Of a stretch of 64,000 bases of DNA, positions 13,315 to 33,240 are shown one piece after another. A model generated the notes under the pieces. It made no database searches and was not told the DNA's origin. It was given only the letters and a program-made list of their open reading frames with translations. The stretch spans positions 40,734,001-40,798,000 of the forward strand of contig OX597834.1 in NCBI GenBank assembly GCA_951406725.2. The letters are read 5' to 3'. This DNA comes from Octopus vulgaris (lineage: Eukaryota). Both the position numbers and the translations under genes were made by a program. Every line of letters begins with the position of its first letter. The first letter of the stretch is position 1.

Positions 13315-13625
13315 CGGGCATTTTGTCATGCGCGTGTTCAACCGGATATTTATCTCAGACTTTCAAAATCCAAGAGACATTTCGCTGCCATTCAAAACCC
13401 GTCCACCCCAAGAAAGACCCTCTTTGTTGTGAGATTTAAAGTTAAATGTTAAAGAAATCCTATTAACATATTATTCTATAACATTTACGCAGTAACACAC
13501 TTCACAACAAACTCTGACTTTTAATATTTACAGGGAATTTGTCTGATATTTGTTTTTTCTTCTCTTCTGTTATTCTTCACTCACAACTTTACTGCTTCAT
13601 TTACGGAAAAAAAGATATAGACGAG
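13315..13625 (+). promoter_or_regulatory. Paralogous ZNF-type promoter and non-coding exon 1, upstream of the Tigger transposase
   Basis: Blocks shared in order with 4115-4500: GCGC(A/G)TGTTCAACCGGAT, TACGCAGTA, CTGATATTTG, GAG|GTA donor (13625/13626), then intronic TCATT(A/C)AATCGTCT. Confidence 0.55.
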
Positions 13626-13839
13626 GTAATATTTCAAATAGTTATTTTCTTCATTCAATCGTCTATTTTCCGTTCATCAATATAATGTTTCTCTTTGTTT
13701 GATCCATCATATATTCGTAGCACCTCCGACTAGACTCATAGAACACCTTCACGTCAGCGAAGATTTTTTTAATTAAATATTAAATTAAAACGGTCAGTGC
13801 TATAATTATTTACAGTAATACTTCGCTTTACGAGTTTTA

Positions 13840-14231
13840 TCTCTCTCTATATAAAGCTGAAGTTGTCTGTGTGTGGCAGGTTTGGTAGCCTTCAACTAAC
13901 ACTATCTCCTCTGAGACCCTGCAGCTCAAGTTGACCAAAATTGAGAGTATGATAGAAGAAGGCTTGCTCTTCCTTCCGTAGAAGAAAAATTCAAATCGGA
14001 CCATGTTAACACCAAAAATTATTTACATCAAAAAGGTGCTTTTTTTTCTATGAAAATCCCTATTTTTTACGATTTTTCGACTGCTGTGTCGCCAGTTTTC
14101 GGTGTATTTCAACCAGAAAAATGTTCACTTAAAGAGAATAACAAGCTACATAATGCAAAATTTTTACTTTTCAAAAATTCTAACTCTAAAGGGTCGAAAC
14201 AAACCCGAGCAACGCCGGGCGATACTGCTAG
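13840..14231 (+). mobile_element. Non-autonomous Helitron nested in the Tigger 5' region
   Basis: 5' TC(TC)nTATATAAAG, 3' hairpin CCCGAGCAACGCCGGG then CTAG; A|T insertion with no TSD, supported by the empty site at 46561-46590. Confidence 0.85.
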
Positions 14232-14481
14232 TTCTATAATTAATATAAAAATGTTAAACAGTCATTATGTGTGTGGCAACATTGGTTCTGACACGTCTAC
14301 ACAGTTGCAGAGAGCGACGGAATAAAATGACAGGATAAAATTTCAATTTTACCAAAATTTAAATGCCTTAGTTGCACGTGCGCTTTGTTGAAAGAGATTG
14401 TAAGCTAATTCTTCGTGCTCTGTATTTTATATTGTGTACGTGTTTTTACTATTTTCGGCATTTTTAAAAAACCCACCCAAT

Positions 14482-28745: not shown

Positions 28746-29460
28746 ACCAAAGGATTTTACCTTTTCTACACTAAAGATATAAAGAGTAAATCCTTCAATT
28801 AATGCAGTGAGTGATAGTCTTTCATTGAACTCCTTTAATTTCTCTACAAGCATCAGAAATAATTGTTGATTCTGGTAGTTCATAGATAGGAAGGCAAAAT
28901 ATACACATCGACAATCAATCGAAAAAATGTTTTTCTTCAAATGGAAATAATTAAAAGTACACTCAGATATGGTTGTCCACAAAGCAGAAAAGAGAAAGAT
29001 GAACCATTATTATTAGATTCTGCTGGTTACTGTTGAGACCTCAGGTGTTCTTGGACTTCCGTCTGCTGATTTTTCTCCCCAAAATCATATCTGAGAAATG
29101 AGCTCCATGTGGTGGGGGTGGCTGTTTTCTGTAGCAATGCTTTTGCAATCATGCTAGTGAGGCATGATGAAAGACACATCATTTGCTCTGGGATACACAA
29201 CCCATTATTCCCCCCCCCCATCTGTTGCTTTTTTTTTTTGTTTCCTTGGTGATGCAGTTATGGGTTTTGTTAATTTGATCCTTTATACTTTTAATGTTTT
29301 TCTTTCTGTAAAAGTGTGTTAATAAAACTGAAGGTAAAAAAACAAAGTAATAAAACGTGTGATGTTTATTAATTTCTTTATTATTTTTTACACCATTGAA
29401 GTAAATAATTTAACATCCTCCTCAATTGCTGGCATGGGTCGGATGGTCTGGCAGGAGCTG

Positions 29461-30458
29461 TGACACTCGCAAATTGATATTCAACCAGACCATCAAGTCA
29501 TGGAGGAGTCACACTATAAATATATCATCATCATCGTTTAATGTCCACCTTGCAAACTGCCATGGGTTGGATGGTTTGACAAGAGGCAGACAGGCAGAAG
29601 ATTGCACCAGACTTCTGTGTCCATTTTGGCATGATCTTTACAGCTGGATGCCCTCCCTAACAACAACCACCTCACAGAACGGAATACAAGAAATGATAAA
29701 TATAAGATCTTATTATCACTTCCTTGAAGACAGATATACACAAAGCTCCAAATCAGAATACATACAATACTTGAAAGAATGTATATAAATAACATCCATA
29801 ATATATATAGGATGATAAAGGATAAAGATCCTTCACAAGTTATAGACTCATAGGGCTAGTTTCCCAGTTTATGTGGAGCATACATTCCCCACTGGACAGA
29901 ACACTGGTCCATCAAAGGATTACTCATTTTTGCCAGCTGAGCGGACTGGAGCAAAGTGGAATGAAGTGTTTTGCTCAAGAACACATTGTATTGCTTGATC
30001 GAGGAATCGAAACCTAAATCATACAATCATGAGTCCAACACCTTAACCACTAAGCAACACACTTGCACCAAAATATATATAAGGGCTTACATGCACATAC
30101 ATACTACTGTGGTATGACAAAAGAATTTTTGCCATGAATCCTGTGTTTATTTCTAACATGATAACTGTAGAGAGAAGTTGATCCTGATTTAGGACAATAC
30201 AATTCTCAGTCATTTATTCACAATGTCAAATAAATCAATACAATGCTTTTTTTTTCCCTTTGGACATATGCTAGATGGAATATATATGAGCATTCCGAAA
30301 TGACTGGTAAGCCGTCTCACCAATGTAGGAATAGTTGAGGACGTGTGTATGTGTTTGTGTATATAATGAAGTGTTGGGTGGTTGTTTTCACACCATCATA
30401 TTTTTTAAAGTATATTCGTTAGATATATGTTATACAAAAAAATCCATTTTCACATTGT
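29461..30458 (+). repeat. ~1-kb copy of the 3' flank/3'UTR of ZNF gene 3, inserted at the duplication junction
   Basis: Collinear near-identity to 49395-50385. Confidence 0.92.
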
Positions 30459-32295
30459 TAAAATATGAGAGATGACCTCATAAGGTGAAAGGTGAAGTGT
30501 TGAGAGGTCAGGGGAAAACATTCACATAACTTCCGACGATACAGTTCACTCTTCCCTCTATCGGATAAATAATGAAATATATCAATACAAAGGGGAACAA
30601 CCTTCACGATGCGTGTCATGTAAATATCACAAAGTTTGAAACCAGCTTCGGCCACGTGGGATGAGAATTTAAGAGAGGAAACTATTTAATTTTCTATTTC
30701 TTTACTACCCACAAGGGGCTAAACACAGAAGGGGACAGACAGACAGATTAAGTCGATTTGATCGACCTCAGTGCGCAACTGGTACTTATTTAATCGACCC
30801 CCGAAAGGATGAAAGGCAAAGTCGACCTCAGCTGAATTTGAACTCAGGACCTAAAGACAGACGTAATACTTATTTCTTTACTACCCACAAGGGGCGATCC
30901 TTCGGTAGAAGTACCGTAAGTGGCTTTGTTTACGTTTCTGAAGATAACTGAAACCCTTTTCTCCCATCTCTAACCCTAACACAAACCCTAATCCTAGCCC
31001 CCCCCCACCATATATATATATATATAAAAAAAACACTTTCTGGAAATGTATCCGTTACTTATACCGAAGTTACGCCACTATTTAATTTCATTAACCTTTT
31101 TTTTTTGCTGCCCTGGGACTTTATTTTATCGATTCCGAAAGAACGAATGAATGCCTCGGCGGGGTTCGAACTTGGAATGGTAAAGAACCGTTAGAAATGC
31201 CGCTTCGCATTCTACCAGCTCGCAGTCTTACGCGTGTGGTATAATATCTAATACTGGTTTATTTTTATGAAACGGGTGAGTTGACAAAGATTTGTTGTAA
31301 GGCTGTAAAAAGGTGTATCAATGGCATAATATATTTCCTCATTGTAGCTTTTACGAATGGGATAAAATGTGTTTCGAAATTCATGTTTGTCTATTACTAA
31401 TGAAAACTTTTTATATACGTTCTTGACCGCCTTGCTTGCATGCAAGGGATGTCATCTTTTTTTCATAATTACTGACCTATTTATTTTTTGACCTCTTACC
31501 AACTTGACCCAAATTAGCATCCAATTTTTTAAGCAATTTCTGAAGAAGGTAGGTATTCCTTCGATATCACTCGACAAAATCAAACTTGGACTCCAGTATT
31601 TTCCGAAATTCCATACCCCACTCTTCCTAACCCCCCCCCCCCGAAAAAACCATTTTTTTGTATATTTGGGATCTACATGATATAACACATATTCGTAGGG
31701 AATTTCATTAAAAAATATCCATTTTACTGAAAGTTATGATCATCTAAAGTAGGGGAGTCGATAAAAAAATATTCGATGTAAATTGGATTGATAAATTTAT
31801 TATTTATTTATGGTTGACTGTTATATACAAGATCAAATATATAAGTTGCATTTGTTTCTTTACAGTTAAAGAAGACAAGATTGGTATATTCGGTATTACT
31901 TATTCGGTAAATTTGGACAAGTATACCTGCATTCGGTTCACCAAAAGAAAAAAAAACCCGGATTTTTCACCTGGAAAAGTATCTTTCCCGCCAAAACTCT
32001 AATAGGGGAACTAATGCGTTTCATTTTTGCGTGGGGAGAGAGAGACAATCAATGTTTTCACTCTACAAAGAAGCGATTTAAAAGAAATATATGCTTATAG
32101 AAAACTATTGTATCTTTTTAAAATATCCTTAATTTACATATTGTATGTTGTGTGCGTGTGTGTTTTTTTATTTTTCAATTTGTTTTCTCTTCCACAGTAC
32201 TTGTTCATTTCTGTGTGTGTGCGTGAGAGAGAGAGCTGAAAAGCATATAAAAATAAGAGGAATTTGCCCAGCTGTTCGGATTTAGTTCTACCGTG

Positions 32296-33240
32296 ATGTC
32301 GTGTGCAACCTGTCAGCGCTTATACTTTGATTGCATCCGTGATTTTTCTATGCAGAATGAAGAATCTATTGTATTCCTCCGGAACCATGGTGTTCTGCCC
32401 ACTGATGTAATATGTCCACGCTGTCGGAGTGAATGTGTGTATATAAAGGAAGAGCATCTCTGGCAGTGCAGGAGCTACACTGACGCTGAATCTAGAAAAC
32501 GGCAGCAGTGTCGTTATTCTGTATCGGACTTTAAAGGATCCTTTCTTGATAATGCACACATTCCTCCGTGGAAAGTCGTTCTTTTCGTAAACGAATTTCT
32601 AAATCATACTTGGAGTGATATGATACTGATGGCGAAGCAGGAATTGTGTTTAAGAGCTCAAGAATGGAGGTCATTCTGCTGTGGAGTAACAGAAAACTGG
32701 CTTCACAAACAGGAACAAATTGGTGGAGAATCAATTGAGGTTGAAATTGGTGAGGCCTTAATTGTCCACCGGAAACCTGACAGGGGTCCAATTTTGAACC
32801 AAGTTTGGTTGTTTGGTGGATTAGAGCGAACCAGTAAGCGTCGTTTCGTTGTGCCACTAATAAATAAGGAGCGTGACAAAGCGACACTGGTTCCTCTGAT
32901 CCAGACATTTATCAAACCTGGCTCAGTTATTTATAGTGATACAGGGGCTGCCTACAGTGATTTAAGCAGTTTGGGTTATCACCATTACGTGATAAACCAT
33001 TCTGAAAATAGTGATCAAACGCATATTCACACACAAAACATTGAACATTTGTGGAGGAAGATAAAATGGAGTATGAGAAGGCTGTCAAGTACTGGGTCCA
33101 AATGTTTCCATCAATATCTGGCCAGATATTTATTTATTTCCTCAGAGAAGGACAAGTCAGTATTACACCACAAATTTTTTCGAGAGGCAGCTCAATTATA
33201 TGTACCCCTCTCGGACCAGCCATGTCCTTCAACTACATAA
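32296..33240 (+). CDS. Merlin/ISXO2-like transposase-derived protein, copy 2
   Basis: Same length as copy 1, 11 aa differences, no indels or stops; same VEIGE substitution. Confidence 0.85.
   Translation: MSCATCQRLYFDCIRDFSMQNEESIVFLRNHGVLPTDVICPRCRSECVYIKEEHLWQCRSYTDAESRKRQQCRYSVSDFKGSFLDNAHIPPWKVVLFVNEFLNHTWSDMILMAKQELCLRAQEWRSFCCGVTENWLHKQEQIGGESIEVEIGEALIVHRKPDRGPILNQVWLFGGLERTSKRRFVVPLINKERDKATLVPLIQTFIKPGSVIYSDTGAAYSDLSSLGYHHYVINHSENSDQTHIHTQNIEHLWRKIKWSMRRLSSTGSKCFHQYLARYLFISSEKDKSVLHHKFFREAAQLYVPLSDQPCPSTT

Follow-up and report, generated by a model that had tools for sequence, protein, structure and literature searches.

Transposase reading frames of two unrelated DNA transposon superfamilies lie among C2H2 zinc-finger (ZNF) genes in the 64,000 nucleotides of Octopus vulgaris DNA analysed here (the window), raising the question of whether they were captured as host genes or are decaying passengers of the cluster. 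ORF and domain searches of the window reveal one Tigger/pogo coding sequence and two Merlin ORFs of the ISXO2/IS1595 type. The three transposase ORFs of the preliminary description are therefore real, but they represent two insertion events instead of three, because both Merlins share one duplicated unit. Positions 24255 to 29460 and 30459 to 35512 (both forward strand) are copies of a duplicated 5.2-kb segment with about 97% identity and one Merlin each, and we dropped the idea of three independent captures in favor of this segmental duplication. Copy 1 comprises a CpG-rich region (head-to-head with exon 1 of ZNF-B), the Merlin, a dead ZNF-C terminal exon, and poly(A) signals, and the ZNF exon of copy 2 carries 12-bp and 181-bp deletions. 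With unit boundaries set by us, ZNF-type units make up approximately 59% of the window, and simple arithmetic from this coverage puts the chance of both insertions landing sense-oriented within such units at approximately 0.09. A LINE is also present inside a ZNF exon of the window, so insertions into ZNF units are common.

The Tigger-derived gene (14482 to 16112, forward strand) is assigned to the pogo/Tigger group by its CENP-B_N helix-turn-helix (HTH; E 9e-6), HTH_Tnp_Tc5 (E 2.5e-8), and DDE_1 (E 3.6e-42) domains. The protein start is NLS-like, and over residues 16–149 the protein is similar to the DNA-binding domain of CENP-B (1HLV, E 4.6e-6), making DNA binding by the HTH likely as a sequence-based prediction. 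In the window the frame is broken, running from the ATG at 14482 to a stop at 14802 with the remainder in another frame. This 2-base frameshift near 14795 is found only in the window: the contigs spanning 14646–14897, drawn from 4 public runs, are two letters shorter in 4/4 cases, implying a gene of 542 aa. The frameshift is either a mistake in the assembly or an allele private to this sequence; in the latter case, the 104 conserved residues discussed below would remain encoded. We dropped the notion of a pseudogene created by it. The long open frames reported earlier hold for both Merlin copies; for Tigger, an open frame is implied by all four runs and absent from the window itself. Contigs of three small runs cover the Tigger coding sequence; they are guessed to be RNA, with no run on record as such. 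The O. sinensis Tigger model P0086 is a spliced prediction.

The catalytic triad of Tigger reads S-N-D in the window and in P0086 and S-D-D in P0087 of O. bimaculoides, so that none of the three has the DDD triad of an active element. With G-D-E in Merlin, the loss of catalytic residues is only partial in both superfamilies, which rules out that all catalytic residues were substituted. An early stop excludes the in-frame tail QTTLDLFSKK (16113 to 16142, forward strand), which we take to resemble the QxxLxxFF PCNA-binding motif; a motif of this type is present in 35/63 Tigger relatives, and P0087 stops at the same place as the window.

Upstream of Tigger, positions 13314 to 13725 (forward strand) are a paralogue of the ZNF-A promoter, non-coding exon 1, and intron 1 start. 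They align to 4115–4493 upstream of ZNF-A with 57% identity and a score of 88 (best of 30 shuffles 54; best shuffle of a second comparison 43), and a GAG|GTA donor is in register between the two regions (candidate donor GT at 13626). Tigger sits approximately 190 bp 3' of this duplicated exon-1 donor, bearing out its proposed tie to a ZNF-type promoter. One contig (run X1, record 1) crosses the candidate donor unspliced, and no joint from exon 1 to Tigger is among the 15 splice joints listed (778 more lie beyond these). The TA target site and 5' terminal inverted repeat (TIR; 13812 to 13839, forward strand) are well preserved, with TA followed by CAGTAATAC... at 13814 and a family relic at 46530 that differs at 5 of 24 positions. 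The 5' region is split by an insert at 13840 to 14231 (forward strand) that begins with TC, contains a hairpin, terminates in CTAG, and is flanked by A and T. We presume from Helitron anatomy that it is non-autonomous and Helitron-like; it is matched by very many contigs. A 3' TIR was not found in the window with up to 6 mismatches allowed, so that of the two TIRs and TA target duplication of an active Tigger only the 5' side is seen there, and the description of its termini as decayed or missing fits the 3' side alone. Since one of the six criteria given in PMC4231638 is that no TIR be left, the surviving 5' TIR lowers the formal membership of Tigger among domesticated genes, but not the claim that it works like one.

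Downstream, the only AATAAA within 200 bp of the Tigger stop is a candidate poly(A) signal at 16248 to 16253 (forward strand), and a search of the window 3' of Tigger found neither a ZNF coding remnant nor a ZNF terminal acceptor. An alternative C-terminus is encoded by a downstream exon at 17303 to 17386 (forward strand; donor GT at 15933), whose translation equals C-terminal residues of P0086 with AG/GT borders, and a second downstream exon of that model lies at 19197 to 19265 (forward strand). This mapping of the P0086 C-terminus to both window exons indicates synteny with O. sinensis, for which we also counted that its Tigger and Merlin records are on contigs of equal size. The unique Tigger flanks are thinly covered in three small runs, and contig depth gives no basis for ranking.

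Among the best 120 hits listed, the Tigger-like gene is found only in three Octopus records, and the proteins of the window, O. sinensis, and O. bimaculoides form one clade with 100/100 support. The intact P0087 shares with the window the change of the first catalytic Asp to Ser (D in 57/63 relatives, S in none), a one-codon deletion (T in 53/63 relatives), and the early stop; from these shared derived changes and the tree we infer that P0087 is orthologous. In the genome-sized run X19, the missing codon is present in two contigs, which hints at further copies of the family without the deletion. Every gap separating window ORF2 from P0087 comprises whole residues. Residues 1–104 differ at 3/104 positions and the others at 73/434 (97% versus 83% identity; Fisher p = 6e-5), a protein-level comparison with a boundary picked after the frameshift was known. 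A neutral simulation at 8% divergence (PMC6472339) predicts 16.7 differences in residues 1–104 and 69.5 in the other 434, amounting to a five-fold deficit of replacements in the former and a roughly neutral rate in the latter, with a chance of approximately 0.004 that no stop arises in both lineages. The family norm is the opposite, with an N-terminus less conserved than the remainder (44% versus 61%; reversed in 73/1891 pairs). The second HTH drifts (8/55 residues), and 17 lineage-specific or double changes fall on 161 family-conserved columns. The conserved 5' part is CpG-rich (observed/expected 1.39 versus 0.37 in the DDE core), so a low mutation rate or constraint at the DNA level could mimic protein constraint; at a lower local rate the deficit has P = 0.02 (4%) or 0.09 (3%). 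P0086 lacks the N-terminal 126 residues, which may reflect either a damaged O. sinensis gene or an incomplete model of it. The combination of a conserved HTH end and a drifting remainder, as in SETMAR, makes it likely that Tigger was domesticated recently as a DNA-binding protein.

The two Merlin ORFs (copy 1, 26055 to 26999, triad G-D-E, candidate acceptor AG at 25955–25956; copy 2, 32296 to 33240; both forward strand and 314 aa, unlike at 11 residues) are Merlin/IS1595-derived by their DDE_Tnp_IS1595 domain (E 1.7e-15), and the predicted structure has an integrase-like core (pLDDT 87.7, confident). Their termini are decayed as first described: the left subterminal inverted repeat (25719 to 25812, forward strand) is only 73% identical to the reverse complement of the right one (27067 to 27160, reverse strand), and a search across the ends found no 8- or 9-bp direct repeat. 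An active Merlin would have GG...CC TIRs, an 8–9 bp target duplication, and an intact DDE triad, of which the first Asp is Gly here; recent mobility of either element was rejected. A broken ZNF exon follows 3' of each Merlin on the same strand, in agreement with the preliminary description. In copy 1 this exon (27970 to 29354, forward strand) has degenerate fingers, a frameshift near 28660, AATAAA at 29321 and 29349, and an acceptor (27964–27969) with the terminal-exon motif found at 5 other ZNF genes. No A(A/T)TAAA lies between the Merlin stop and this ZNF-type acceptor, and to judge from the sequence the decayed exon is now probably the Merlin 3' UTR; a 3' UTR spliced on in this way could make the mRNA a target of nonsense-mediated decay. 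A search of the other cluster promoters for a counterpart of exon 1 in the Merlin unit gave nothing convincing. The Tigger and Merlin ORFs each have their own ATG and stop and no host domain spliced in frame, and the one longer hit among 738 candidates for fused Merlin forms is an amphipod Vps52 model, weak evidence that ZNF fusions are absent. The copy 1 stretch is matched in 19/24 runs (14 guessed to be RNA, 4 small and of unknown kind, 1 genome-sized); none is on record as RNA, and we do not take these matches as proof of expression.

The Merlin frame is whole in both copies and in P0207 of O. sinensis (97%), and the copies differ by no indel in the coding sequence (4.2 expected, P = 0.015). 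Their dN/dS is 0.52 for the whole coding sequence (p = 0.17) and, after a post hoc split, 0.97 for codons 1–124 and 0.13 for codons 125–314, the latter from six substitutions only (2 N, 4 S, one-sided p = 0.02). The closest relative, the truncated 224-aa record P0002, is 75% identical, which is faster than the neutral expectation of 84%, with 38/120 differences in the N-terminal half versus 17/104. Besides P0002, a profile search gave no full-length match above 51% among the best 150 of 5713; the tree was built by a quick method. The change of the first Asp to Gly is absent from P0002, which keeps all three triad residues, and present in 5/65 relatives, and it appears to be recent. Invariant residues were lost by D152G, W217G, and R165P, the first two at near-invariant positions of the core. 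Several degenerate Merlin relics occur in O. bimaculoides (P0074, P0306, P0308), and 28,998 Merlin insertions are listed for O. vulgaris (PMC13282606). Because only one catalytic residue is lost and the N-terminal half evolves fastest, the proposal of nuclease-dead DNA binders is unsupported for Merlin and survives for Tigger, which is old, keeps its frame, has a substituted triad, and shows conservation, probably by selection, concentrated at the N-terminal HTH.

We favor, with a probability of roughly 0.55, the reading that two unrelated DNA transposons landed sense in ZNF units, whose transcription they likely usurped, with Tigger likely domesticated and a use of Merlin doubtful. Tigger, its 5' end intact, would have landed behind the duplicated exon-1 donor and, before the split from O. 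bimaculoides (approximately 34 My in the literature), would have lost its first catalytic Asp, one codon, and the C-terminal tail. Since then, selection would have held residues 1–104 (basic N-terminus and first HTH) while the remainder drifted without a stop. Through its first HTH, the Tigger protein would recognize the terminal repeats left in relics of its family, and it may, having no fused effector domain, be a passive blocker or adaptor. Merlin would have settled between the CpG-rich promoter region and the ZNF terminal exon, which then decayed and likely serves as 3' UTR, and the whole unit would have been duplicated like any cluster gene. Duplicated promoters with a non-coding first exon are plentiful in ZNF clusters, so a dedicated trap is not required to explain such captures.

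It is possible, if rather unlikely, that both elements are neutral fossils with read-through transcription, a Tigger 5' part conserved as promoter-proximal, unmethylated, CpG-rich DNA, and long frames that stand out by ascertainment among thousands of relics. The neutral divergence of the Tigger C-terminal 434 residues, its 17 changes at conserved columns, the window frameshift, and the truncated O. sinensis model would all fit, as would the 75% identity of Merlin to P0002, the degenerate relics of O. bimaculoides, and the sheer number of Merlin insertions. The five-fold deficit in residues 1–104, the P of approximately 0.004 for no stop, the whole-residue gaps relative to P0087, and the absence of the frameshift from all four runs argue against it for Tigger. 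We regard as improbable the broader idea of a trap, in which DNA transposases are repeatedly caught by the ZNF clusters of cephalopods and retained as nuclease-dead proteins that repress their cognate MITE families. Two superfamilies do lie sense in ZNF units whose ZNF exons are lost or dead, the 3' region of Tigger is hit by very many X19 contigs, which hints at a related family of many copies (summed depth giving no copy number), and an excerpt of PMC10547256 has octopus ZNFs among those tested for binding to transposable elements. However, n is 2 and ZNF-type units fill about 59% of the window, so that chance placement is adequate and a trap system is unproven; moreover, the N-terminal half of Merlin changes fastest, no fused repressor domain was seen (weakly indicated by the 738 Merlin candidates), and the LINE lies in a ZNF exon as well.

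Most improbable to us is that Merlin was kept for its RNase H-like core (as scaffold or residual nuclease) rather than to recognize DNA, or that it was still mobile in the recent past. The dN/dS contrast between core and N-terminal codons, the retention of 2/3 triad residues (3/3 in P0002), and the confidently modelled integrase-like core point that way, but the core signal comprises six substitutions only, and D152G and W217G hit near-invariant positions. Mobility is further opposed by decayed termini without target duplication and by shared flanks that reflect segmental duplication instead of transposition.

Under the favored reading, Tigger resembles the primate SET-Hsmar1 fusion SETMAR, in which, according to an excerpt of PMC6326780, the DNA-binding part is conserved and the catalytic part drifts (Ka/Ks 0.1 versus 0.7) over approximately 50 My, with cognate relics as proposed targets; unlike SETMAR, it has no fused host domain, is of pogo and not mariner type, and is characterized by protein-level divergence only. 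Its placement inside a ZNF gene and behind a ZNF promoter recalls the KRAB-ZNF fusions KRABINER and KTIGD1, where the excerpted account (Cosby et al., 10.1101/2020.05.07.082677) has a transposon in a ZNF intron, expression driven by the ZNF promoter, and eventual loss of the host transcript. KRAB- or SCAN-Tigger fusions (PF01352, PF02023) also occur among the Tigger matches listed. By contrast, the octopus is a mollusc without KRAB, and no coding domain is seen in its ZNF exon 1; capture would therefore be confined to the promoter, joined in the case of Merlin by the 3' end. Domain composition (CENP-B_N, HTH_Tnp_Tc5, DDE_1) and a degenerate triad are shared with the domesticated pogo genes CENP-B, TIGD2-7, JRK, and Drosophila CAG (PMC7386202, which sets TIGD1-like genes aside as pseudogene-like), but Tigger is far younger and retains its 5' TIR. 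The D. simulans CAG, given in a table of PMC4231638 as 111 aa with the first HTH only, parallels the frameshifted form of the window. For Merlin (IS1595-related), the closest parallels are old, TIR-less, segmentally duplicated copies in Stentor and Symbiodinium, read in an excerpt of PMC8101967 as possible domestication; these share the DDE_Tnp_IS1595 domain and segmental duplication, while the octopus Merlin has an animal host, lies inside a ZNF gene unit, and lacks GG termini and an 8–9 bp duplication.

Tetrapod ZNF genes are already known to capture transposases, and a single TIGD-like candidate is a modest addition, whereas a cluster-wide claim would be far larger but is unproven. In its widest form, which we consider improbable, cephalopod ZNF clusters would be a nursery of transcription factors by promoter capture, in which transposases take the place of the finger array and, nuclease-dead and unfused, bind the families they came from. 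This would be convergent with tetrapod KRAB-transposase capture, though lacking an effector domain, and would extend to a host gene of Merlin origin in an animal. An excerpt of PMC12513265 describes as open whether cephalopod ZNF expansions are involved in a transposon arms race; a young, octopus-specific gene of transposase origin, whose HTH is conserved and whose own TIR is a candidate binding site, would make part of it testable. As a likely case of domestication, the octopus Tigger would show how this route can be taken in a KRAB-free lineage, by borrowing a duplicated ZNF promoter.

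The window holds a cluster of C2H2-ZNF genes with a single coding exon apiece. The encoded proteins match named Octopus sinensis records at 96-99% identity, which suggests an octopus of the vulgaris/sinensis group. A common acceptor motif is found at six ZNF terminal exons (7085, 22036, 27964, 45558, 52043 and 61059). The genes are ZNF-A (7.4 kb, +), ZNF-B (20.6 kb, -), the dead ZNF-C (28.3 kb, +) and ZNF-C' (34.5 kb), ZNF-D (40-45 kb, -; split by a LINE), ZNF-E and ZNF-F. The preliminary description listed three transposase ORFs among them, a pogo-type Tigger and two Merlins, but these are two insertions: identity is 96.9% between 24255-28398 and 30459-34625 and 97.5% between 28577-29460 and 34623-35512, so that both Merlin ORFs, their flanks and the ZNF exons are one duplicated unit, ruling out three separate captures. 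This unit starts in CpG-rich sequence lying head-to-head with exon 1 of ZNF-B, ends shortly past two AATAAA signals, and has the span of one gene. ZNF-B exon 1 (-, donor near 24195) faces the unit start, making 24195-24480 a possible bidirectional promoter. About 960 bp of the ZNF-E 3' side (49424-50385) are copied at 97% between the units (29499-30460), so the duplication is not a simple tandem copy.

The Tigger gene (14482..16112, +) had been described as tied to a ZNF-type promoter and exon 1, and anatomically this holds: 13314-13725 and the sequence upstream of ZNF-A are 57% identical across 432 alignment columns, scoring 88 where the best of 30 block shuffles reached 54, and a GAG/GTA donor falls in register. 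No splice from donor 13626 is found among the 15 joints listed (there are 778 further ones) and one contig crosses it unspliced, so the link is anatomical and we infer that the ZNF-type promoter serves Tigger. Between 8368 and 20628 there is no ZNF remnant. The termini, thought decayed or missing, are so only in part: no 3' TIR lies in the window within 6 mismatches, but a TA plus terminal repeat is kept at 13814, about 190 bp past the donor, and matches a family relic at 46530. With this 5' TIR still present, and conservation measured on proteins rather than as dN/dS, Tigger falls outside formal domesticated-gene membership. The 5' region also contains an insert at 13840-14231 that we take to be Helitron-like. 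The relic, a same-family 5' end upstream of ZNF-D (46344-46770, TA and TIR at 46530), adjoins a palindrome of 130 bp that is nearly perfect (46344-46473). In the genome-sized run X19, very many contigs match 15838-16285, in the 3' region of Tigger, at no less than 88%, hinting at a multi-copy non-autonomous relative.

Among the best 120 of 944 matches, the closest to Tigger are P0086 of O. sinensis (99%) and P0087 of O. bimaculoides (82%; 540 aa, unbroken), followed by one at 57%, and the three form one clade (support 100/100, 20-row tree). All three carry serine at the first catalytic Asp, where 57/63 relatives have D and 0/63 have S; at the second Asp, N is limited to the window and P0086. 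All three also lack the codon after PxD (T in 53/63 relatives), and the window and P0087 share a stop position immediately ahead of a QxxLxxF tail present in 35/63. Two X19 contigs retain the missing codon, a hint of other family copies without this deletion. The P0086 model lacks the first 126 residues, and its odd C-terminus maps to two AG/GT-bordered exons of the window, 17303-17386 and 19197-19265, establishing synteny with O. sinensis. One source dates the split of O. vulgaris and O. sinensis to 2.5 My and that from O. bimaculoides to ~34 My (10.1101/2023.05.16.540928).

In the window, the Tigger CDS runs from 14482 to a stop at 14802 and then continues in a different frame up to 16112. 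Four runs were compared over 13150-19850: X1 and X10 (organism A, guessed RNA), X13 (organism B, guessed RNA) and X19 (organism A). One listed contig per run spans 14646-14897, and in 4/4 runs it falls two letters short of the window (contig/window 1155/1157, 300/302, 1014/1016 and 274/276), a difference whose place is bounded by this span rather than read directly; adjacent contigs are without gaps. The shortfall agrees with the +2 near 14795 seen against P0087. Tigger is thus likely whole (542 aa) in the individuals behind these runs, and the frameshift is an assembly error or private allele; the long frame claimed initially is broken in the window but likely intact there. Contigs of the three small runs, whose RNA nature is a guess, cover the CDS.

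At the protein level, Tigger and P0087 differ at 3 of residues 1-104 and at 73 of the other 434 aligned (Fisher p=6e-5, with the boundary chosen after the frameshift was seen). The genomes of O. vulgaris and O. bimaculoides diverge by ~8% overall (PMC6472339). Neutral simulation at that rate expects 16.7 differences in residues 1-104, with 3 or fewer in 0/3000 runs, and 69.5 +/- 7.7 for the rest; both lineages would stay free of stops with a probability of ~0.004. In the 63 relatives it is instead the N-terminus that is less conserved, at 44% vs 61%, with the order inverted in 73/1891 pairs. A conserved N-terminus with the rest at neutral rate matches the pattern described for SETMAR (PMC6326780). 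Constraint at the DNA level may also have conserved residues 1-104 in this protein-level comparison: this part is rich in CpG (o/e 1.39 vs 0.37), and P rises to 0.02 or 0.09 if the local rate is 4% or 3%. Residues 16-149 match the DNA-binding domain of CENP-B (1HLV, E 4.6e-6). The second HTH drifts (8/55 residues differ). Pogo HTH recognition of a 12-bp TIR site is the subject of a title cited within PMC4231638. The conserved part ends almost exactly at the window frameshift (14482-14802), so the frameshifted form would still encode the conserved 104 residues, similar to D. simulans CAG (111 aa).

The Merlin ORFs (26055..26999 and 32296..33240, +) are both 314 aa long and 97% and 96% identical to O. 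sinensis P0207, which appears under four accessions and is a mosaic of both copies. The substitution claim applies to their first acidic residue alone (EIGEA), the other catalytic residues being kept; the closest relative, P0002 (224 aa, 75%), retains it, and 5/65 others also have G. Decayed termini are borne out by subterminal inverted repeats only 73% alike and by an 8-9 bp target duplication that was looked for and not found. From the Merlin stop to the ZNF-C acceptor there is no A(A/T)TAAA, and the dead ZNF-C exon therefore likely serves Merlin as 3' UTR. Changes between the copies number 14 at replacement and 7 at silent sites (dN/dS 0.52, p=0.17). Their CDSs show no indel, whereas the 19 indels elsewhere in the unit, many of them in simple runs, would predict 4.2 (P=0.015). 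A post hoc split gives dN/dS 0.97 for codons 1-124 and 0.13 for codons 125-314, and differences to P0002 number 38/120 in the first aligned residues and 17/104 in the others. The N-terminal half, modeled with Cys pairs and a helical bundle (pLDDT 87.7), is thus the least conserved part, the reverse of what the proposed kept DNA-binding protein would show; the core is predicted to fold like integrases. O. bimaculoides has degenerate family relics (P0074, P0306 and P0308), within which the window Merlins, P0207 and P0002 group together (support 92, quick tree). The CDS 5' half (26055-26500 vs 32296-32740) differs by ~4% between copies vs ~1% in most of the unit, suggesting gene conversion, a third paralogue or diversifying selection.

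ZNF-type units, with rough boundaries set by the analyst, make up 59% of the window, and two insertions would both lie in sense within them with a chance of ~0.09. Enrichment of captures in the ZNF cluster cannot be shown from one window, and the system-level trap is a testable idea, not a finding. The ZNF-D coding exon also holds in sense a LINE with an unbroken 949-aa endonuclease and reverse transcriptase ORF (41121-43970, -) and an (ATA)n tail (41046-41071), which probably inserted recently and inactivated ZNF-D. Upstream of ZNF-E, long inverted arms at ~53500-53570 and ~53790-53860 look MITE-like by eye.

Transposase capture through ZNF gene introns is described for tetrapods, with 32 KRAB fusions and KRABINER, which derives from a mariner inside the final intron of ZNF112 (10.1101/2020.05.07.082677). 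Pogo domestication is reported repeatedly (PMC7386202, PMC4231638 and PMC13548663), and Merlin domestication as possible in protists (PMC8101967). The open-licence papers searched yielded no octopus domesticated Tigger transposase, the titles and abstract openings listed there named no animal Merlin-derived gene, and PMC12513265 does not use the word "transposase". Merlin is one duplicated frame of uncertain use. Tigger is credible as a young pogo-derived gene, specific to octopus and placed behind a ZNF promoter that it borrowed, and would work like the DNA-binding half of SETMAR or like CAG.
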